From positions 686,865 to 710,864 of the forward strand of contig NZ_CP139303.1 of NCBI RefSeq assembly GCF_034092465.1: DNA of 24,000 bases, read 5' to 3'. The notes beneath the pieces are model-generated. The model ran no database searches. It saw only the letters and a program-made list of their open reading frames with translations, and was not told the origin of the DNA. The stretch is from Prochlorococcus sp. MIT 1223. Its GTDB lineage: Bacteria; Cyanobacteriota; Cyanobacteriia; PCC-6307; Cyanobiaceae. The translations under genes and the position numbers were made by a program. This document shows, in pieces, positions 1-8,839 of the stretch; positions within the stretch are counted from its first letter, which is position 1, and every line of letters begins with the position of its first letter.

Positions 1-3000
1 TGAATATCTTTTATATGGTTCTTTGATATCCCTCTAAAGTAATAACTATTCCACTCTTCATAACCCATCCCCAATGATTGTGTAAAATCACTAATTGAAT
101 CTTCAAATCGTCCAATTTGCCCTTTTGCTAAACCTCTCCAATAATAATGACTTCCTTCTTCAGGTTTGATATCTATTGACTTTGAATAATCATCTATCGC
201 TTCTTGATAACAACCACTTTGAAACTTTGCGTATCCTCTATTTGCATAAAGCAGAGCATCATTAGGGTCAGTTTCTATTGCAGTATCAAAATCCTTAATC
301 GCCTCTTCATAATTTTCTAAATTATATGAGTTTACTGAACCACGACTATTAAGAGCATATTTATTTGAAGGGTTTATTTCTATTGCCAATGCATACTCTT
401 CTATTGCTCCTTCGATATCTCCAGATTCTTCTTTTGCTCTACCAATTTTCCATACATGATTATCTTCTTTAATATATTCTGCTGCCTCAAATTGAGTAAC
501 GAAACCAATCTGCTCTTCTAAGGTTAAATCTTTTGGATCTTCTTTTTCTTCTAGTGGACCTTCCCTACATATATAAGCATCAACCCAATCAGAACAGGCA
601 CCTTGAAAATCACCTAGTTCGTTTCTTGAATTGCCACGAAGAACATATGAACTGCAATCTTTTCTATTAACACTAATTGCTTTTGTATAATCTTCAATTG
701 CTCCTTGATGATCATTTAATTCTGATTTCTTATAAGCAATTAACTTATGAATTTTCAAAGAATAATCGTCCTCATCTTTAAGCGACTTTGCTATTAACAA
801 ATCCTTAAAAAAATCATCTATATTATTATCTCTTGCATGCAATAATCCCCTATTGAAATAAAAAACCGGATCATCATTACTGTTCTCAATACATATATTT
901 AAGTCACTTATAGAACCTTTCAAATCACCTATATCGGACCGGCAAATTGCTCTCTTGTAATAAGCATCATATTGATTTGAATTCAGATCTATCGCCTTAT
1001 TATAATCTTCGATTGCACCTTTTATGTCAGGAATATCAAAACTATTTTTTGTTATACCTCTAGAAAAATAAGCATTTGGTGAATCAGGATTTAATTCAAT
1101 TGCCTTAGTAAAATTCTGAATTGCGCTTACATATTGACCCAATTCAAACATTATTTTTCCTCGCCAATAATAAGTAGTCGATTCCTTAAAATCTTCTTTC
1201 TCATCCTTCAGTTTAATTATCATATCTATTGCCTTATCTATTTCAGATGCACTTGCTTCACCCCATGAGTCTTTTAAATATATTTCTTTAGCATCATTAA
1301 ATTCTTTTACTGAACCTTTGTAGTCCCCTAAAGCAAATCTAAAAGTTCCTAGGTCGTGTTTTAACCTTGCTTGAAAACTACTATTGTCTTCCATATGATT
1401 TGCCGTCATATCAATTGCCTCTTGATGATTGCCTAACAGTGACTTACATCTAATAACATCGAATGGAATGTCAAAGTCTTCATCTTTTTCGTAATCAGCA
1501 ATTGCGCCTTCATAATCACCCAACATCTCTTTTAATTGCCCTCTCTTTTCATAAGGTTTTTCACAAAACAAATCAGGGTCAATTTCTATTGTTTTATCAA
1601 AGTCCGCAAGTGCATCTTTATAGTCTCCTAAGCGTTGTTTAATGATTGCTCGATTGAAATATGCTTTTGCACAGTTAGGGAAAAGACCTAATACTTTATT
1701 GCAATGTTCAACTCCTTTTATATATTCTCCATTATCACAAAAATCATTTGCTAAATCAGCAAAATAATTATCATGATTTTCTATTTTATTTTTTGCTGAT
1801 TCAACTTGATACTTATCAAACTCGTTTCCAGTCTTATTATATTTTTTTAAGTATAAAGTAGATTCTTGTTCCCAATCAGAAAAAGCACCTTCCAGATCAT
1901 CTATTTGTTTTCTTGTCTCAGCACGAAGACCGAATAGGTCTGGATCTTCTTGATCTAAATCTATTGCTTTATCAAAGTCTTTGATTGCTCCTTTATTACT
2001 ACCTAACCTTCTTATCATCAATGCTCTTTCTCTATAAGCAAGTGATCCATCCTCAGGTTTATATTTTGAATCAAGTTGTATTGACTTCGTAAAATCTCTA
2101 AGTGCACTTAATGGATCTGTAAACCTATTTTTGTCCGCCCTTGCATAGTAATCAGCGGCAGTTTTCAGATCATTTCCTAATAATATATTATCTTGCGTGC
2201 TTGTATCTACAACGTTCTTCAAGTTTTCTGCCAGTAATTTATCGGCATCTTTATTACCCAGTTTTGATGCTTCCTGCCAGTCATCACAAGCACCATTGAG
2301 ATCACCAGATTCTTTTTTTGCCTTCCCTCTATTTAAGTATGCTTCAGCATATTCTTCATCATCTAGTTCATCTTTTTTTAGAACTCTGCTGAAGTTTATA
2401 ATTGCTTCTTGATAGTTTTTTAATTCATATTGAATTAACCCTCTCCTGCTATATGCACGACCAATGGATGGATCAATACGTATTGCTCTACTTAATTCAT
2501 CCAATGCTCCTTGTGTATCTCCCAGTTGGTATTGGATATCAGCAATACTGAGTCTCAAACCATTGTGCTCAGGGTGCAGACCAAGATGTCTACGATAACT
2601 TCTTATTGCACCTTTTTTATCTTCTGTGAACCATTGTAGTCGTGCAAGGGAGACGTATACATTATTTTCTGCACAATCATCAGGATCAAGTTCAAGAGAT
2701 TTTTTATAGTCACTAATTGCACCTTGGTGATCACCTAAAGAATTCTTTGAATCTGCCCTGCATTGATATGCGACCTCATCCTCAGGTCTAAGTTCTATTA
2801 CTTTGCTCCAATCATTAATTTGTTCTTGATGGTCAACTTCTAAATTCGATTTAATTAATGCTCTGTATTGATAAAAGTCAGGATTCTTGGGGTCAATTGC
2901 TATTGCTTGGTTGTAATCATCTAATGCTTCTTTATAATTTTGTGCCATATATTTATCAAAACCACTTTTCGCAAATTCCTCCGCAGTAGATTTTTCTTGC

Positions 3001-3236
3001 ATTTCTGAACCAATTGTTTTCTCATTCAGATCAATTATATTTCGATCAGAATTTTTATCTTTAGGGACATTGTCTGAAGTTATCCTTTCTCGCTTTATAG
3101 GTCCATAATCTCTGTAATCAACTTTTGATGAACGAGAGTCAATTCTCGACGAATGAGAACTATTTCCCTGAGTGCCTACCTTGATTAAATACCATATAAA
3201 CCAAATGATAAAAACTAAGGCGATAAATTCTCCCAT
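1..3236 (-). CDS. Giant TPR-repeat protein with an N-terminal membrane anchor; 5'-complete, truncated by the window edge (>=1078 codons)
   Basis: Hand translation from the ATG at 3236 (minus) gives MGEFIALVFIIWFIWYLIKVGTQGNSSHSSRIDSRSSKVDYRDYGPIKRERITSDNVPKDKNSDRNIIDLNEKTIGSEMQEKSTAEEFAKSGFDKYMAQNYKEALDDYNQAIAIDPKNPDFYQYRA... This is a hydrophobic helix, a Ser/Arg/Lys linker, then canonical TPR units (A..Y..AI.IDP.N). Translating the same frame at bases 3-180 still gives TPR-like sequence (...GLAKGQIGRFEDSISDFTQSL...) with no stop. The ORF track has no complete minus-strand ORF here, consistent with one ORF running off the edge. Confidence 0.8.
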   Translation of the reverse strand, partial: MGEFIALVFIIWFIWYLIKVGTQGNSSHSSRIDSRSSKVDYRDYGPIKRERITSDNVPKDKNSDRNIIDLNEKTIGSEMQEKSTAEEFAKSGFDKYMAQNYKEALDDYNQAIAIDPKNPDFYQYRALIKSNLEVDHQEQINDWSKVIELRPEDEVAYQCRADSKNSLGDHQGAISDYKKSLELDPDDCAENNVYVSLARLQWFTEDKKGAIRSYRRHLGLHPEHNGLRLSIADIQYQLGDTQGALDELSRAIRIDPSIGRAYSRRGLIQYELKNYQEAIINFSRVLKKDELDDEEYAEAYLNRGKAKKESGDLNGACDDWQEASKLGNKDADKLLAENLKNVVDTSTQDNILLGNDLKTAADYYARADKNRFTDPLSALRDFTKSIQLDSKYKPEDGSLAYRERALMIRRLGSNKGAIKDFDKAIDLDQEDPDLFGLRAETRKQIDDLEGAFSDWEQESTLYLKKYNKTGNEFDKYQVESAKNKIENHDNYFADLANDFCDNGEYIKGVEHCNKVLGLFPNCAKAYFNRAIIKQRLGDYKDALADFDKTIEIDPDLFCEKPYEKRGQLKEMLGDYEGAIADYEKDEDFDIPFDVIRCKSLLGNHQEAIDMTANHMEDNSSFQARLKHDLGTFRFALGDYKGSVKEFNDAKEIYLKDSWGEASASEIDKAIDMIIKLKDEKEDFKESTTYYWRGKIMFELGQYVSAIQNFTKAIELNPDSPNAYFSRGITKNSFDIPDIKGAIEDYNKAIDLNSNQYDAYYKRAICRSDIGDLKGSISDLNICIENSNDDPVFYFNRGLLHARDNNIDDFFKDLLIAKSLKDEDDYSLKIHKLIAYKKSELNDHQGAIEDYTKAISVNRKDCSSYVLRGNSRNELGDFQGACSDWVDAYICREGPLEEKEDPKDLTLEEQIGFVTQFEAAEYIKEDNHVWKIGRAKEESGDIEGAIEEYALAIEINPSNKYALNSRGSVNSYNLENYEEAIKDFDTAIETDPNDALLYANRGYAKFQSGCYQEAIDDYSKSIDIKPEEGSHYYWRGLAKGQIGRFEDSISDFTQSLGMGYEEWNSYYFRGISKNHIKDI

Positions 3237-3515
3237 GCTTTTTTCTCTTAGGACTCATTGCAACTGATTTACTCATTTTAGTTAAGTCATTTTTTTCTAC
3301 CAAGACTCAATTTTTACAAGTAACACTTCAGAATGCAGTTCAGGGTTATTGCCACACTTTATAGCGTACTAAAAACTGGAGGGTATATATCACATCATTG
3401 ATAGCATTTAAAACTAATTGAAAATCCTCAAATTTGCTTCTATCTTTGTATCAATAAGGGTGTTTACTTCATTTAAGGGTTAGAATACTATTAACAGTGA
3501 TGGTTTCTAGCACAA

Positions 3516-4097
3516 ATGAATAAAATCATCGGTTACTCAAGAGTTTCTACTGGAGGACAGACCACAGATACCCAAGTTGCTGCTCTTAAAGAGGCAGGAT
3601 GTGAGGTTGTCTTTGAGGAAACCGTAAGCAGTAGAAAAGCAGAGAAAGATAGACCTCAACTTCAGGCAGCACTCACAGCACTTAGATCTGGAGATGAATT
3701 AGTCATAACCAAATTGGACAGGTTGGGAAGGTCTCAGGTTGAGGTTGTTAATCGACTTCACGAATTACAGGCACAAGGAATCAATGTTCGGACTTTGGAT
3801 GGTCTTGTTAATACAGCAGGTCTAGGTCAATTCGCACCAATCCTTATTGGACTCTTGTCTGGTCTTGCTGAGGTTGAAAGATCCCTAATTCAAGAACGCA
3901 CAAGAGAAAGCGTTGAGTTCAGAAGAAAGACAGGAGGAAATCTTGGAGGAAGACCTAAGACAGCACCTAAGAAAGAAAAGTTGGTATTGCGTCTAAGAGA
4001 AGAAGGTGAATCACTCAGGGGTATTAGAGAGCAAACAGGATTAGCAGTTGCAACTATCAGAAAAATCCTTGAGAGGAATAAAGAGGTGGCAGCATGA
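3516..4097 (+). CDS. Small serine site-specific recombinase (resolvase/DNA-invertase family, Hin/Gin-like, 193 aa)
   Basis: N-terminal catalytic motif GYSRVSTGGQ (nucleophile Ser), KLDRLGRS, LAEVERSLIQERT, GGRPK linker and a C-terminal HTH (LRGIREQTGLAVATIRKIL). Collinear with my recollection of Hin/Gin/gamma-delta resolvase. Hand-counted GC is 42-47% on two sampled 60-nt lines, versus 28% on a TPR-gene line. Confidence 0.9.
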   Translation: MNKIIGYSRVSTGGQTTDTQVAALKEAGCEVVFEETVSSRKAEKDRPQLQAALTALRSGDELVITKLDRLGRSQVEVVNRLHELQAQGINVRTLDGLVNTAGLGQFAPILIGLLSGLAEVERSLIQERTRESVEFRRKTGGNLGGRPKTAPKKEKLVLRLREEGESLRGIREQTGLAVATIRKILERNKEVAA

Positions 4098-4267
4098 CAA
4101 AGGTAATGATCGAATGGTTAGATCACCAAAATCGTTGGAGACATTATTCGAGTAGTCATCACGAACCCACTGCATATAAAACTGCACAGACTCGTGCAGA
4201 GAGGACTGGGAAGAGACACAGGATCACTTCTGAAGAAGGGTCTCTGATCGATGTATTTGAACCTTGA
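4094..4267 (+). CDS. Hypothetical 57-aa protein, translationally coupled to the recombinase (not in the ORF track, below its size cutoff)
   Basis: ATGA overlap with the recombinase stop (ATG 4094-4096 / TGA 4095-4097). GAGGTG Shine-Dalgarno-like motif ~6 nt upstream. Translation: MTKVMIEWLDHQNRWRHYSSSHHEPTAYKTAQTRAERTGKRHRITSEEGSLIDVFEP. No family recognised. Confidence 0.4.
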   Translation: MTKVMIEWLDHQNRWRHYSSSHHEPTAYKTAQTRAERTGKRHRITSEEGSLIDVFEP

Positions 4268-4273
4268 TTAGAC

Positions 4274-4465
4274 ATGTTCAAATTCATTCTTCTTGGACTT
4301 CTTTTCTTCAGTCCCTCAGTTGCATCTGCTCATATGTTGACCATTGAGGAGTACTGCGAAGACGTGACTCATAAGAATGTCGATCACACGAATATCTGTT
4401 ATCGGATCGTTTGGAATTATTGGAAAGAGTTCCACCAACACACACATGAAAAACCCCACCTGTGA
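4274..4465 (+). CDS. Hypothetical small secreted His-rich protein (63 aa)
   Basis: Sec-type signal peptide MFKFILLGLLFFSPSVASA|H. The mature part has 8 His and 2 Cys. It competes with an antisense ORF (4316..4507), and its 3' end contains a minus-strand terminator, so coding status is uncertain. Confidence 0.35.
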   Translation: MFKFILLGLLFFSPSVASAHMLTIEEYCEDVTHKNVDHTNICYRIVWNYWKEFHQHTHEKPHL

Positions 4466-4476
4466 AGAAGGTGGGG
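4449..4476 (-). terminator. Rho-independent terminator for the minus-strand micro-operon 5297->4538
   Basis: 8-bp GC-rich stem CCCCACCT (4454-4461) / AGGTGGGG (4469-4476) with a 7-nt loop. On the minus strand it is followed directly by TTTTT (complement of A4449-4453). It lies 62 nt downstream of the 4538 stop. An outer CACATG/CATGTG pairing (4443-4448 / 4477-4482) can extend it. Confidence 0.6.
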
Positions 4477-4537
4477 CATGTGAGTAGTGAGTTTTCTCCT
4501 TAATCAAAGTGATTGTTCAACACCTTGAAGTTCCAAT

Positions 4538-4696
4538 TCAAAACCCCTGCATAGGAGTCCAACCAATTCGAACTTTATTGAGTGTTCCTTCCTCACTTTT
4601 CCTCCAAAGAATCTCCTCGATTTCTTTTTGGAAAAGTTTGACTTCACTCGAGTCGTTGTATTCAACGATTAGTTGAAACTCAGCAAAGTCACTCAT
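4538..4696 (-). CDS. Hypothetical 52-aa protein (not in the ORF track)
   Basis: ATGA overlap with the upstream gene stop (ATG 4696-4694, TGA 4695-4693). GGAGG Shine-Dalgarno 10 nt upstream (complement of 4706-4710). Translation: MSDFAEFQLIVEYNDSSEVKLFQKEIEEILWRKSEEGTLNKVRIGWTPMQGF. Confidence 0.45.
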   Translation of the reverse strand: MSDFAEFQLIVEYNDSSEVKLFQKEIEEILWRKSEEGTLNKVRIGWTPMQGF

Positions 4697-5025
4697 ATGT
4701 TTTCATCCTCCAGTAGTCCTCTCTCTTCATCCACCCCTTCTAAAGATCCCCAAACATATTCATAGGTTGAACCCCAATGAATGCATTTAGTTTTGAGAAT
4801 TCTTTTATAGGGAATAATCGAAGAAATTGCATCTATAAATTCTTCAGTACCTGGATATTCATCAAACCAAAGTCTAACCTCGATCACCTGATTCTCTTCT
4901 TTAAAGGAGGGGGAAGGTAATTCACATAAAACGTGAAACTCTGGTTTAGAAGCAGCACTTTTCAAAATATCTGGATATCCATTATCCAAATAAAGGTCTG
5001 AATCAAATTCTGCACAGTAAGTCAT
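4693..5025 (-). CDS. Hypothetical 110-aa protein; start re-assigned from 5073 to the internal ATG at 5025
   Basis: The ORF-track ORF 4693..5073 overlaps the upstream gene by 52 nt. The internal Met (MTYCAEFDSD...) instead forms an ATGA overlap with the upstream stop (5025-5022) and has a GAGGG motif ~7 nt upstream. No family recognised. Confidence 0.55.
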   Translation of the reverse strand: MTYCAEFDSDLYLDNGYPDILKSAASKPEFHVLCELPSPSFKEENQVIEVRLWFDEYPGTEEFIDAISSIIPYKRILKTKCIHWGSTYEYVWGSLEGVDEERGLLEDENI

Positions 5026-5297
5026 TTGTTTCCCTCTTGAGTTGTTGGATAGAGTTCGTTCATGACAATCCAAAAGGAATCTGTGATGAATCTGACGTGT
5101 TTAGTTTCATAAGGAGTAAGTAGTTCAAAGAACACTCTTATCAATTCACTTTTAACCTTCACTTCCTCTAATTTCTTCTCACGATATTTTTGAATAAAGT
5201 TATAAGGAGATTGATGTTCGTATGTACGAATCCTAATTGGTTTTGGTCTGAGTTTAGGTACAGGTTTAATCTGTACTTGTTGAGTGGTTGTAGTCAT
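5022..5297 (-). CDS. Hypothetical 91-aa basic protein, first gene of a 3-gene coupled micro-operon
   Basis: ORF-track ORF starting MTTTTQQVQIKPVPKLRPKPIRIRTYEH... Its position and coupling to the downstream genes support it; no recognisable domain. Confidence 0.5.
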   Translation of the reverse strand: MTTTTQQVQIKPVPKLRPKPIRIRTYEHQSPYNFIQKYREKKLEEVKVKSELIRVFFELLTPYETKHVRFITDSFWIVMNELYPTTQEGNK

Positions 5298-5694
5298 AAT
5301 AAAAAGTATGGTATACAGTTTCCTGTCTCTTTGAAAGAGGAGTTTAGTGACAGTCAGGCATTGTCAAAAAGAGTAATTAACTAATTAATTTTCTTTACTT
5401 ATATCGCAGATTGAAATTGTTCGATTCATTCCGTTTCGATGAATATAGTATAGCACAGCAGAACAGGATATGGCGCGTATCTTTAGGATTTCTTTAGTAT
5501 TAGATCCCTTTTATATCAAAGGATCTAAAGCAGTATTTCTATTTAATTAGTATTAATATCTAATATACATTAATTGTTAATTGTAATCAACCTATAGGAG
5601 TAATTTTTATCCTGGAAAATATTTTGATATGGATTATTTCTCTCTTTCGATTTTGGTTCGTTGTAGGTTATGCAATTAATCAATTTAAATACAC

Positions 5695-5835
5695 TTAACC
5701 ATTCACATATCTGCGATTAATGTTGTCTATAAAGAACACCTGTATCTCTTTTGGATTGAAAGGGCGTTTATCTCTTCTCATCACTTCCTTGAGTTGTTCT
5801 AGTTGAACCTTGTTCAGTTTGAGGTTGATATTCAT
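5695..5835 (-). CDS. Hypothetical 46-aa protein (not in the ORF track)
   Basis: ATGA overlap with the stop of 5832..6023 (ATG 5835-5833 / TGA 5834-5832). Translation: MNINLKLNKVQLEQLKEVMRRDKRPFNPKEIQVFFIDNINRRYVNG. No obvious Shine-Dalgarno. Confidence 0.3.
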   Translation of the reverse strand: MNINLKLNKVQLEQLKEVMRRDKRPFNPKEIQVFFIDNINRRYVNG

Positions 5836-6023
5836 TTGGATGGAAACAGCAGTTGGTGACGTTCTGATCGGAGAGTCTTATACATCTGACTTTTATTCCA
5901 TCCGTAATGCCGCATTAGTGCCAACTCCTCTCTCTTTGTTCTCTCTTCTTCCCACTCGTGATAGGAGATCGTGGTCTTCCTTCTGGTTCCTTTAGTCCAC
6001 TTGGGTTGTGTATTGGTCTTCAT
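5832..6023 (-). CDS. Hypothetical 63-aa basic protein, possible stand-alone Hin/resolvase-C-terminal-like HTH DNA-binding protein
   Basis: The segment KGTRRKTTISYHEWEEERTKREELALMRHYGWNKSQMYKTL follows the pattern of serine-recombinase C-terminal domains. Basic G-x-R-x-K linker, then helix, then G-x-x-x-S-x-[LM]-Y-[KR]-x-[LF]; compare Hin ...GIGVSTLYRYF, from memory. By-eye resemblance only. Confidence 0.4.
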   Translation of the reverse strand: MKTNTQPKWTKGTRRKTTISYHEWEEERTKREELALMRHYGWNKSQMYKTLRSERHQLLFPSK

Positions 6024-6142
6024 GGGTTTACTTACTTTGTAGGGGCGTCAAGAGGTCTCTGGCGATCCTTTCTTGAGAGGATGCAGTCTGAGATACATCA
6101 CTCAACTACATTTCTAAATGTATTTATAATCATTTTTCTCCC

Positions 6143-6169
6143 CTAAAGTTACTCTAAAGCACCTCTAAG
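6143..6169. repeat. Three 11-bp-phased copies of CTAAAG/CTAAAG/CTAAG
   Basis: Copies start at 6143, 6154 and 6165 (cCTAAAGttact CTAAAGcacct CTAAGtaatcc). Confidence 0.6.
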
Positions 6170-6340
6170 TAATCCTTCAAAGGTTCTAATGGGGTTCCGA
6201 AAACCGACAGAGTTATTTATACAGTTACGTACAAATTATGGTCACTAGTTAATAATTATTTACAAAGAGTTTTGCTCTTCAGTTTAACTTAGCAATCAAG
6301 TCTTTAGGCACCTGTTATAGGAAATGATTACCCAAGTAAA

Positions 6341-6383
6341 ACCCGAACACATTTGCAAAAAACCCGAACACAACCCGAACACA
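6341..6383. repeat. Three exact copies of the 11-mer ACCCGAACACA (spacing 21 and 11 bp)
   Basis: Exact copies at 6341-6351, 6362-6372 and 6373-6383. The last two are directly tandem. The first two are each preceded by an A-run. Confidence 0.85.
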
Positions 6384-6504
6384 AATATTCCGAAGTTGAA
6401 CTATCCTGAATGCTTCGGGATAGTTCTTGTCTCTAAAACGTCTGTCATAGACCCATCTCGGGTCACTATAACTACTCAGGAGTAATCCTGATCAGTTAAA
6501 AATA

Positions 6505-6589
6505 CGGAGAGGGTGGGATTCGAACCCACGAACAGTTTCCTGTTAAACGATTTCGAGTCGTTCGCTTTCGACCACTCAGCCACCTCTCC
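6505..6589 (-). tRNA. tRNA-Ser (anticodon CGA), 85 nt, class II long variable arm, CCA not encoded
   Basis: The reverse complement folds by hand. Acceptor GGAGAGG/CCTCTCC plus discriminator G. Anticodon stem AACGA/TCGTT with loop CT-CGA-AA. Variable arm ACAG-GAAA-CTGT. T arm GTGGG-TTCGAAT-CCCAC. Confidence 0.9.
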
Positions 6590-7834: not shown

Positions 7835-8500
7835 ATGGATTACTTAATCCATAAACTACTAGACAAAAAAACTGCGCAAAAAATAATTAGAGAGATTCTA
7901 AGTAATCAATCGGACTGGAAAGACGGGAAGAGAACGGCTGGATCATTTGCCTCAAAAGTAAAAAACAATTTACAACTTGATCGGAATTCTGAATTATCTA
8001 TAAATGCAAGCGATGAAATAACATCACATATGCTTAAAGATCCGCTTATAAAAAGTTTTTCTCTGGCAAAAATTATCCATGGGTTGATGTTTAGCAAAGC
8101 AGGATTAGGTCAGGGGTATGGAACACACATTGACAATCCATATATGAGCTCTGGAAGAAGCGACCTTTCATTCACTCTTTTCTTAAGTGAGAAGAATAAT
8201 TATGAAGGAGGTGAACTTTGCATTCAAACCATGCAAGGAAGCAATAGTTTTAAATTAGATATGGGAGAAATAATTATTTATCCTAGTACAAGCCTTCATT
8301 CAGTAGAGAAAGTCTCAAGTGGCCAGAGAATTGTTTGCGTAGGTTGGATTGAAAGTTACGTTTCTAGCAATGAAGAAAGAAGTTTTTTATTTGGACTTGA
8401 GGCTGGAGCAAAGGGGTTACTTGCAAAATATGGACAGTCACCAGAGTTAGACTTGATATTTCAATCATATGGGAACCTTTTAAGAAGGATGGGGGACTAA
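7835..8500 (+). CDS. piuC: Fe(II)/2-oxoglutarate-dependent PKHD-type hydroxylase (PiuC/YbiX family)
   Basis: 221 aa, collinear with my recollection of E. coli YbiX. Shared features: ...WKDGKRTAG..A..VKNN.Q.D, H.D motif in GTHIDNP, LSFTLFLS....YEGGEL, YPSTSLHSV. Confidence 0.85.
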   Translation: MDYLIHKLLDKKTAQKIIREILSNQSDWKDGKRTAGSFASKVKNNLQLDRNSELSINASDEITSHMLKDPLIKSFSLAKIIHGLMFSKAGLGQGYGTHIDNPYMSSGRSDLSFTLFLSEKNNYEGGELCIQTMQGSNSFKLDMGEIIIYPSTSLHSVEKVSSGQRIVCVGWIESYVSSNEERSFLFGLEAGAKGLLAKYGQSPELDLIFQSYGNLLRRMGD

Positions 8501-8593
8501 AATATCATTTGATACATTGACTAGTCATTTTTTTTGAAGGGTTCAGAAAAATGCCTATTTGATATATAAGATTGGATTAATGATTTTTAAAAA

Positions 8594-8839
8594 ATGGGAA
8601 AAAAGTCACCCGTTGCAATATTCATGGCAGCAACTGCATTACTTGCAACAAGCAGCCTAAATGCAAATATCAGTCACTCAGCCCCAAAAGATAAAGATAT
8701 TGGTGGCTTAAAGGAATGGACAACAGATCAATCTATTGAAGATGAAAGTAAATTAGATGAAGCAGCCAAAAAAGCAAAGAAAAAAGCAAAGAAAAGAAAT
8801 CTTTGCATACCAGTAGGAGAAGGAGAAAATTGCTGGTAG
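8594..8839 (+). CDS. Hypothetical small secreted Lys-rich protein (81 aa) ending in C-x8-C-W
   Basis: Signal peptide MGKKSPVAIFMAATALLATSSLNA, a KKAKKKAKKR tract, and C-terminus NLCIPVGEGENCW. Followed by a strong terminator. Confidence 0.6.
   Translation: MGKKSPVAIFMAATALLATSSLNANISHSAPKDKDIGGLKEWTTDQSIEDESKLDEAAKKAKKKAKKRNLCIPVGEGENCW

Follow-up and report, generated by a model that had tools for sequence, protein, structure and literature searches.

A 24,000-nucleotide stretch of the Prochlorococcus sp. MIT 1223 genome (contig NZ_CP139303.1, positions 686,865 to 710,864; referred to below as the window, with positions counted from its first letter) contains a cassette of small genes that adjoins the 3′ end of a tRNA-Ser(CGA) gene and encodes a small serine recombinase (SR). 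Positions 3343-6504 of the window are probably the tRNA-proximal part of a small integrative element of the kind that Hackl et al. catalogued as cryptic_A (10.1101/2020.12.28.424599), in which SR would be an accessory enzyme and not the integrase. The mobile-element origin of the cassette, already proposed in an initial annotation made from the sequence alone, is supported by the arm iterons, the SR module, and a pair of small genes, all of which have counterparts in integrase-bearing relatives. The suggestion in the same annotation that the element might be of an undescribed type did not survive, as the cryptic_A class had been catalogued previously. Related loci recovered from other genomes and from metagenomes are designated here by L numbers.

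The tRNA-Ser(CGA) gene is the sole match in an Rfam search of the window, and its genomic neighborhood could be compared across metagenomes. Scanning metagenome contigs for FutA yielded 62 loci in which futA is followed by tRNA-Ser(CGA); the best FutA identity among the scanned contigs was 75 to 84%, so a close relative of the strain is absent from the sample. The genes beyond the tRNA (futA, a 221-aa gene, an 81-aa gene, and a porin gene) are syntenic core genes in these loci, as had been assumed from the window. On the opposite side, the tRNA 3′ end is the attachment point, and all loci have diverged from one another by 5 nt past the end of the tRNA. Empty sites (n = 4) possess a conserved 213-aa TPR-like gene 91 to 98 nt past the tRNA, followed by a ferredoxin-like gene. 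Another four loci have an unrelated insertion of 0.45 to 6.9 kb between the tRNA and the 213-aa TPR-like gene, and in three loci a tyrosine integrase gene, preceded by iterons, begins ∼180 to 310 nt past the tRNA. The SR gene and the other open reading frames (ORFs) of the cassette are absent from this position in all metagenomic contigs in which the DNA downstream of the tRNA could be read (16/16). With empty, unrelated-island, and integrase-bearing versions all represented among the contigs, tRNA-Ser(CGA) is a real variable insertion hot spot and the cassette is accessory, and both points agree with what the initial annotation had expected of this locus.

The inserts observed at this tRNA are diverse. 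They include a 0.45-kb scar that has no genes and keeps its iterons (L067, 386-925), inserts of 1.1 kb (L064) and 4.7 kb (L037), a 6.9-kb insert whose ORFs resemble sugar-nucleotide/glycosyltransferase genes by eye (L022, 3727-10660), and an element in which an integrase gene is followed by larger cargo ORFs (L066, 575-4167).

The arm of the window that faces the tRNA resembles an integrase attachment region in layout. Three iterons of the sequence AACCCGAACAC are located 123 to 165 nt from the end of the tRNA, and none of 100 shuffled sequences reached three copies (0/100); a 22-nt repeat pair occupies 6330-6351 and 6362-6383, and a 13-bp-stem hairpin lies between the iterons and the tRNA. 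The AACCCGAACAC iterons are candidate arm-type sites of a tyrosine integrase, judging from their placement. The order iterons-hairpin-core is the same in the window and in the attP regions of L009 and L080. At tRNA-Ser(CGA) itself, two or three iterons are present at ∼+110 to +165 in L039 and L066, where they precede the integrase gene, and in the scar L067, and the iteron sequence differs for each of these three loci. The window is, moreover, collinear with L009 over its whole cassette: both begin with SR and a translationally coupled pair of ORFs, which are followed by a convergent block, a gene pair, iterons, a hairpin, and the core. The products of the gene pair in the window (5695-5835 and 5832-6023) are 61% and 50% identical, respectively, to those of an adjacent pair in L009, L010, and L011 (44 and 56 aa in L009), as found by tblastn.

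Relatives that retain an integrase reveal how such elements are attached. In L009 and L010, SR is followed by small ORFs, then by AlpA, and last by a tyrosine integrase of 418 aa; in L080-L087, the order is integrase, Xis, attP, and SR; and in L088 and L004, SR is found at one end and the integrase (integrase-Xis in L088) at the other. The attP regions of L009 and L080, located upstream of Xis-Int, comprise 12 to 20 nt of the tRNA-Thr(GGT) 3′ end, GGAAC-type iterons on both sides, and a hairpin. For a subfamily at tRNA-Asn(GTT), three att forms were recovered, all sharing the 14-nt core CCGCCCGGGGAGTT: a tRNA junction, in which the intact tRNA-Asn is joined to an arm leading to SR (L092, 635-1300); the attP form (L089, 2180-2884, and L094); and the distal junction (L088, 4985-5145). 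These relatives show that the element class integrates via a tyrosine integrase at tRNA 3′ ends. They also extend the range of insertion sites, since Asn-GTT and Cys-GCA are further tRNA targets of SR-bearing elements, and neither is among the seven targets in the main text or the notes to Supplementary Table 5 of the earlier survey (10.1101/2020.12.28.424599).

One of these elements was recovered together with a junction between its own ends. Near either end of L080 (1-6155) is a copy of a 52-nt repeat (59-110 and 6094-6145), and a second contig, L085, bridges the end of L080 to its start; from these overlaps, L080 apparently exists as a circular or tandem 6.0-kb form. It contains an integrase, Xis, attP with a 20-nt tRNA-Thr(GGT) core, five AAAGTTCCATAC iterons, and SR.

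A case that bears on the extent of the element in the window is L001, where a 24/26-nt partial copy of tRNA-Cys(GCA) lies 10.1 kb from the tRNA. The partial copy is followed by GGGGAAGG-type iterons, a 465-aa ORF, a TPR gene, and two further genes, beyond which the SR module, small ORFs, and iterons lead up to the tRNA. The 465-aa ORF (2005-3635) has no match in Pfam, PHROG, or PDB. Its protein family (90 clusters, ∼460 aa) has invariant R, K, R/H, R, and Y residues and a nearly invariant His, and a profile comparison of the family with the integrases of the elements gave a probability of 57% (E = 1e-4) over the catalytic region. The protein probably belongs to a very divergent, unannotated clade of tyrosine recombinases. 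This presumed integrase lies 8.5 to 10 kb from the tRNA in L001; the window covers 6.5 kb on the cassette side of its tRNA.

The left side of the cassette in the window is occupied by a giant TPR gene. A close homolog of this gene was not found in 5.8 billion proteins (best identity, 29 to 34%), and the gene is therefore not usable as a core flank. It was also considered as an ortholog of the 213-aa flank gene of the empty sites or of the TPR genes at related loci and was rejected as such, the similarity being at the repeat level only; likewise, the leader upstream of the TPR gene showed no significant similarity to the leader of the empty sites. L001, L016, L079, and L015 each have an unrelated TPR gene next to their SR module. 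The G+C content at third codon positions of the TPR gene (0.21) is host-like. By analogy with L001, the element may include the TPR gene, and its integrase may lie off the window. Position 3237, at which the initial annotation began the cassette, corresponds simply to the TPR start codon. The annotation had placed the cassette between the TPR gene and the 3′ end of the tRNA, a placement confirmed on the tRNA side; on the left, neither the edge nor the TPR gene as a core flank is demonstrated. The description of the cassette as a compact 3.3-kb unit is likewise not established, because the element may run left through the TPR gene, as it does in L001. The reported G+C richness of the recombinase part was also confirmed in part: the G+C content of the SR gene is 0.43 and that of the cassette is above that of the window (0.375 versus 0.354), but the excess is modest and a core porin gene is equally rich (about 0.43 to 0.45).

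The SR protein is a member of the Pfam Resolvase family (PF00239; E = 3.4e-33, residues 4-141). The match of its C-terminal part to HTH_7 is weak (E = 3.3e-4; 21.2 bits versus a cutoff of 23.8), and the alignment to Tn3 resolvase is full length, reaching residue 189. The protein matches PHROG 125, “DNA invertase,” with an E value of 3e-50, the Gin invertase with 4e-29, and Tn3 resolvase with 3.5e-24; over the first ∼100 aligned residues, it is ∼45% identical to Gin by eye. The NCBIfam invertase equivalog (Mpi) gives a score of 64.8 versus a cutoff of 272. The alignment to Gin, Tn3 resolvase, and gamma-delta resolvase shows that both the Ser nucleophile (GYSRVST) and the KLDRLGRS motif have been kept intact; the Pfam match and the alignment agree with the original description of a Hin/resolvase-type recombinase with intact catalytic motifs. 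The ratio of nonsynonymous to synonymous substitution rates (dN/dS) is 0.03 to 0.11 against nine relatives (dS up to 1.25), a range indicating that SR is under strong purifying selection; with an intact ORF, retained motifs, and these ratios, the gene does not have the appearance of an inactive remnant.

Large serine recombinases, serine transposases, and IS607-type recombinases were considered as affiliations of SR and rejected, as the protein has 193 aa with the catalytic domain first and scores far below the cutoffs of the XisF, CcrC, and IS607 equivalogs. Large serine recombinases exceed 400 aa and include recombinase and zinc-ribbon domains, and members of the IS607 family have an N-terminal MerR-type helix-turn-helix (HTH) and a TnpB partner. 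Homologs of SR are abundant, with 2388 detected at E < 1e-20; most of these lie on marine contigs of ∼1 kb, and homologs are also present in Prochlorococcus single-cell genomes. An SR identical to that of the window was found on two ∼1-kb contigs only (contig index), and no relatives were found in the viral contig collection. A 9-kb Prochlorococcus contig, L003, bears two divergently oriented serine recombinase genes 7 kb apart (338-883 on the reverse strand and 8001-8573 on the forward strand), one product being 70% and the other 39% identical to SR of the window. Another locus, L006 (NHEF01000009.1, labeled Gammaproteobacteria bacterium TMED78), encodes an SR whose C terminus is 100% identical to that of the window; a stretch of L006 is 75% identical in DNA to the DUF1651 gene region of L009, and its integrase is 46% identical to that of L079. 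L006 probably derives from Prochlorococcus and was misbinned.

The DNA similarity of the window to all of its relatives is limited to ∼3294/3343-4097, which corresponds to the SR gene and ∼170 bp upstream of it. Three related half-sites, designated a, b, and c, lie within 175 bp upstream of SR, as does one more conserved motif. According to the alignments and an inverted-repeat scan, the half-site pairs a-b and b-c form imperfect palindromes, which are weak in the window copy, and position 3363 scores 47.4 with a weight matrix built on the b-c region, versus a shuffle maximum of 13.5. In all 17 sequences scanned (the window and 16 related loci), the site is present just once, and the position-weight-matrix scan of both strands found no second site. 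When a 15-mer of the site was compared with viral contigs, there were 82 chance matches and 0 with an SR gene. We infer that 3343-3399 is a putative SR binding or res-like site. Judged from these comparisons, SR is a conserved, constrained gene with a private conserved site that is present once per element. The same site accounts for the sequence TAAAAA..GGAG..GGT at 3370-3384, in which the initial annotation had seen a weak resemblance to the tRNA 3′ end at the distal boundary. It is the center of the palindromic site that precedes the SR gene in every homolog and is not an att copy, because the same site adjoins SR genes at tRNA-Cys, tRNA-Thr, tRNA-Asn, and non-tRNA places.

Closer to the gene, conservation extends to a AAGGGTGTTTAC motif at the −35 position of the predicted promoter, to a TAGAAT box, and to a palindrome in the leader; a palindrome of 9/12 at −30 recurs in most SR loci. 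The conserved AATAAGGGTGTTTACTT motif at this −35 position may be a further half-site or operator. On the downstream side, DNA homology stops exactly at ...GGAGGTGGCAGCATGA (window 4080-4097), where the stop codon of SR overlaps the next start codon (ATGA), and homology ends at the same ATGA in L001, L009, L015, L016, L079, L080, L005, and L006. Across loci, the slot after the SR stop codon is filled by at least seven unrelated small ORFs. In L009 (2362-2385) and L005, the same GCAGCATGA junction is found again between the ORFs that follow, a recurrence that suggests shuffling of modules at a short junction common to them. The upstream side of the module is variable as well. Among SR modules of 97 to 99% identity (L088-L097), the left neighbor is of at least four kinds, namely, the tRNA-Asn arm, an Mrr-type restriction endonuclease, and two ORFs of 367 and 549 aa, and in each case it ends 10 to 30 nt before half-site b. 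Cases of variable left neighbors are located at L088:1-1344, L090:1-1138, L093:1-1660, and L092:709-1271. The variation beside the SR module may represent a cargo or defense hot spot.

Seven small ORFs of 46 to 110 aa lie between SR and the iterons, two on the forward strand (4094-4267 and 4274-4465) and five on the reverse strand (4538-4696, 4693-5025, 5022-5297, 5695-5835, and 5832-6023). All seven listed by the initial annotation were recovered, and 0/7 match Pfam, PHROGs, NCBIfam, or PADLOC, in line with its statement that none could be assigned to a family. Its designation of them as orphans is too strong, as three of the seven, namely, the gene pair at 5695-6023 and the 110-aa ORF, have homologs. 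The 110-aa ORF has one homolog that is 97% identical and one of 71 aa that is 54% identical (P0147), and a 578-nt contig from a different sample (L098) is 99.3% identical to 4640-5217. No homolog of the 63-aa ORF at 4274-4465 was found; its sequence features suggest that it may be a small secreted metal-binding peptide. The other 63-aa ORF, which lies beside the arm, was tested as an Xis-like protein and rejected (profile comparison probability, 0.2%). Structure predictions for the 110-aa ORF (pLDDT 44) and for the 91-aa ORF (a helical hairpin, pTM 0.34) were too poor for a fold search. An eighth ORF, 6324-6485, is probably just translated repeat DNA. On the core side of the tRNA, a perfect 12-nt tandem repeat, AAAAAAGCAAAG, is present in 2.3 copies at 8768-8795 within the 81-aa ORF beside the porin gene, where it encodes a Lys/Ala-rich stretch. 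The positions of the cassette features are compiled in Table 1.

Table 1. Features of the cassette and its borders, in window coordinates
Feature	Position	Strand	Remarks
Giant membrane-anchored TPR gene	1..3236	-	At least 1078 aa; runs past the window edge
SR-associated conserved site	3343..3399	+	Half-sites a, 3343-3357; b, 3363-3376; c, 3383-3396
Conserved motif AATAAGGGTGTTTACTT	3453..3469	+	At the −35 position of the predicted SR promoter; nearly invariant in 24 upstream regions
−10-like TAGAAT	3481-3486	+	Conserved in upstream alignment; predicted promoter element
5′-leader palindrome CTAxxAAC..GTTTCTAG	3488-3511	+	Conserved in upstream alignment
Small serine recombinase gene (SSR of Hackl et al.)	3516..4097	+	193 aa; Pfam Resolvase
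57-aa ORF, variable slot	4094..4267	+	ATG inside the ATGA overlap with the SR stop codon
63-aa ORF	4274..4465	+	Signal-peptide-like N terminus (MFKFILLGLLFFSPSVASA); His-rich C-terminal half
G+C-rich hairpin	4453..4477		Terminator-like; between convergent gene blocks
Packed three-ORF operon	4538..5297	-	Overlapping starts/stops; 91 aa (5022-5297), 110 aa (4693-5025), 52 aa (4538-4696)
A+T-rich intergenic region	5298..5694		G+C content 0.285; short repeats, hairpin
Conserved small-gene pair (63 aa, 46 aa)	5695..6023	-	Common to integrase-bearing relatives
Three AACCCGAACAC iterons	6340..6382	+
13-bp-stem hairpin	6398..6426	+
tRNA-Ser(CGA)	6505-6589	-	ARAGORN, Rfam; 3′ end toward the cassette

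Taken as a cryptic_A-kind element, the cassette would have entered the tRNA 3′ end via a tyrosine integrase, through a short core common to the tRNA. The window would retain the intact tRNA junction, the iteron/hairpin arm, the conserved gene pair, strain-specific cargo ORFs, and, at the far end, the SR module. The element could run through the giant TPR gene and past the window edge, as in the 10.1-kb L001. Equally, it could be an integrase-less remnant that would be mobile only with a related integrase acting in trans, comparable to the smaller scars at tRNA-Ser(CGA). SR would bind the three half-sites ∼120 to 170 bp upstream of its own gene and, as a resolvase-type accessory enzyme, would resolve multimers of the excised, replicating circle; it would probably also repress its own promoter. 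We infer that SR is a resolvase-like accessory enzyme. It is very unlikely to be the integrase, because the relatives carry tyrosine integrases with attP cores that correspond to tRNA 3′ ends.

Several observations weigh against this interpretation. The iteron sequence of the window was not found with any integrase; the viral contigs gave 0 matches, and the same tRNA has other iterons in other loci. A tblastn search of the window with seven integrases and four Xis proteins found no integrase or Xis remnants. No copy of the tRNA-Ser 3′ end was found anywhere in the window by a search allowing ≤3 mismatches or by short-word BLAST, so that membership in the class rests on the architecture and three shared genes. 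The palindromes of the half-sites in the window copy reach at most 8/12. In the L088-L097 subfamily, the homology breakpoint lies beside half-site b, next to at least four left neighbors, which is not a prediction of a passive resolvase model. Finally, the resolvase role is conjectural throughout, and the closest solved homolog of SR is the Gin invertase.

The missing integrase and second att copy would also be explained if the cassette were a decaying fragment without present function beside the tRNA, where scars and remnants such as L067 and L064 are common. We nevertheless regard inert debris as unlikely, since the SR ORF is intact and constrained (dN/dS 0.03 to 0.11), the small ORFs are arranged in compact operons with overlaps and show no frameshift, and the stretch 4640-5217 exists as a 99.3% identical copy in another sample. 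It is decidedly unlikely that SR and its site serve to capture or swap neighboring cassettes, with a conserved ∼760-bp module amid ever-changing flanks. This proposal draws on the near-identical L088-L097 modules with their different left neighbors, on the window group, in which homology ends at the SR stop codon and at least seven unrelated ORFs follow, and on the metagenomic SR contigs, most of which are ∼1 kb long, as if assemblies broke on both sides of the gene. However, the scan of 17 loci found no reciprocal, second, or cassette-borne site, and breakpoints at gene ends are produced equally by ordinary mosaicism and selection. The short ribosome-binding-site-ATGA motif at the junction after SR could support simple microhomology exchange, and variable distal flanks are expected anyway in islands that grow at a tRNA (10.1101/2020.12.28.424599). 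The differing left neighbors of the L088-L097 modules nevertheless sit uneasily with the resolvase, invertase, and SR-integrase readings alike, and they leave some room for an exchange role. The more specific notion of the SR module as an active exchange device, with unrelated genes swapped at a fixed point directly to the left of half-site b and perhaps at the ATGA junction as well, is a long shot.

An inversion switch, in which a Gin/Hin-type SR would flip its own cargo block or a neighboring segment and thereby switch expression, is very unlikely. Gin is the best match of known structure and PHROG 125 is named for invertases, and the orientation of site, SR, and cargo relative to att and the integrase in L080 and L092 is opposite to that in L009 and the window. 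Yet the integrases of the oppositely oriented elements are 59% identical, consistent with an old rearrangement, and an alternative orientation within a subfamily was seen in 0 of >24 contigs from three SR subfamilies. The score of SR against the Mpi invertase equivalog is far from its cutoff, and each of the 17 loci has one site, counting both strands; the recombinase-driven switch envisaged in the initial annotation thus lacks a second inverted site in the window and in the 16 related loci. A miniature autonomous element, in which the 193-aa SR would itself integrate and excise the ∼3.3-kb cassette at tRNA 3′ ends, is extremely unlikely. The SR site is at the far end of the cassette, 3.1 kb away from the tRNA; no motif is common to the window, L001, and L002 at their tRNA-side ends; and no hybrid or second SR site was found in the 17 loci. 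L001 is bounded by a partial tRNA-Cys 10 kb away, beside the probable divergent tyrosine recombinase, classical tyrosine-integrase att systems are present in relatives, and the iterons of the window are placed where relatives at the same tRNA have iterons preceding an integrase gene. In favor of this reading are the purifying selection on SR, the sharp homology boundaries of its module, and a layout running from SR to a tRNA whose 3′ end faces the cassette, with no canonical integrase between them, which is shared by the window (Ser-CGA), L001 (Cys-GCA), and L002 (Thr-GGT).

To our knowledge, Prochlorococcus has no plasmids, prophages, or conjugation, which leaves small integrative elements as its main known route of gene gain. 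Through the window and the related loci, a cryptic class of such elements that had been catalogued yet not analyzed gains an anatomy, consisting of a core in the tRNA 3′ end, iteron arms with a hairpin, an Xis-Int operon, and an SR module with its own palindromic site. The window itself is one more, probably incomplete, copy of this catalogued but uncharacterized class. The role of a very abundant small serine recombinase in these elements is a question of specialist interest; if the exchange-device reading were true, the SR module would be a serine-recombinase counterpart of the integron platform inside Prochlorococcus islands.

Among known systems, P4-like and PICI-like (phage-inducible chromosomal island) elements with lambda-type att sites resemble the element in having the core inside a tRNA 3′ end and arm repeats within ∼150 bp of the core; the relatives of the window also share with them an Xis/AlpA-Int operon and circular attP forms in metagenomes. 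The SR elements differ in being far smaller (4 to 10 kb), in having an additional serine recombinase, and in lacking recognizable replication, packaging, or capsid-interference genes. With the Gin/Hin/Cin invertases, SR shares its closest solved structure by sequence (Gin) and a site adjoining the recombinase gene, whereas a second inverted site and orientation polymorphism within subfamilies were not found. The resolvase/res systems (Tn3, gamma-delta TnpR, Sin, beta, and RK2 ParA) are similar in enzyme size, in the order of a catalytic domain followed by a putative C-terminal HTH, in the clustering of related half-sites upstream of the enzyme's own gene, and in having a single site per replicon, with an apparently circular form in the relatives that would benefit from multimer resolution. 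In contrast to these systems, the window contains no transposase or plasmid backbone, its putative subsites are weak, and SR is slightly nearer to the invertases in sequence.

Tycheposons in the strict sense also integrate at tRNAs, build the genomic islands of Prochlorococcus, and leave remnants that pile up at the tRNA. Their targets are Pro-tgg, Ser-tga, Ala-ggc, Thr-ggt, Arg-tct, Met-cat, and tmRNA, which do not include Ser-CGA, and they are marked by partial tRNA duplications of ∼40 bp and by modules for replication, regulation, or capsid interference; neither feature is seen in the window. The closest counterpart is cryptic_A, which is listed in Supplementary Table 5 of Hackl et al. with SSR and xis2, the targets tRNA S[cga/gct] and T[ggt], and ∼20-bp repeats next to the tRNA; its target list also includes tmRNA or a fixed non-tRNA site, and its integrases fall in groups YR_2, YR_4, and YR_6 (10.1101/2020.12.28.424599). 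The cryptic groups were defined by their integrase and then set aside from further analysis by these authors (10.1101/2020.12.28.424599). The window differs from cryptic_A in that a YR_2/YR_4/YR_6 integrase was not found in 1-6504, even as a remnant, and xis2 (AlpA/HTH_17 type, YR_2 group) had no tblastn match in the window. It resembles cryptic_A in its position at a listed target, tRNA-Ser(CGA), in its SSR signature gene, in the repeats next to the tRNA, which here are the three AACCCGAACAC copies and the 22-nt pair, and in the small size of its other genes.

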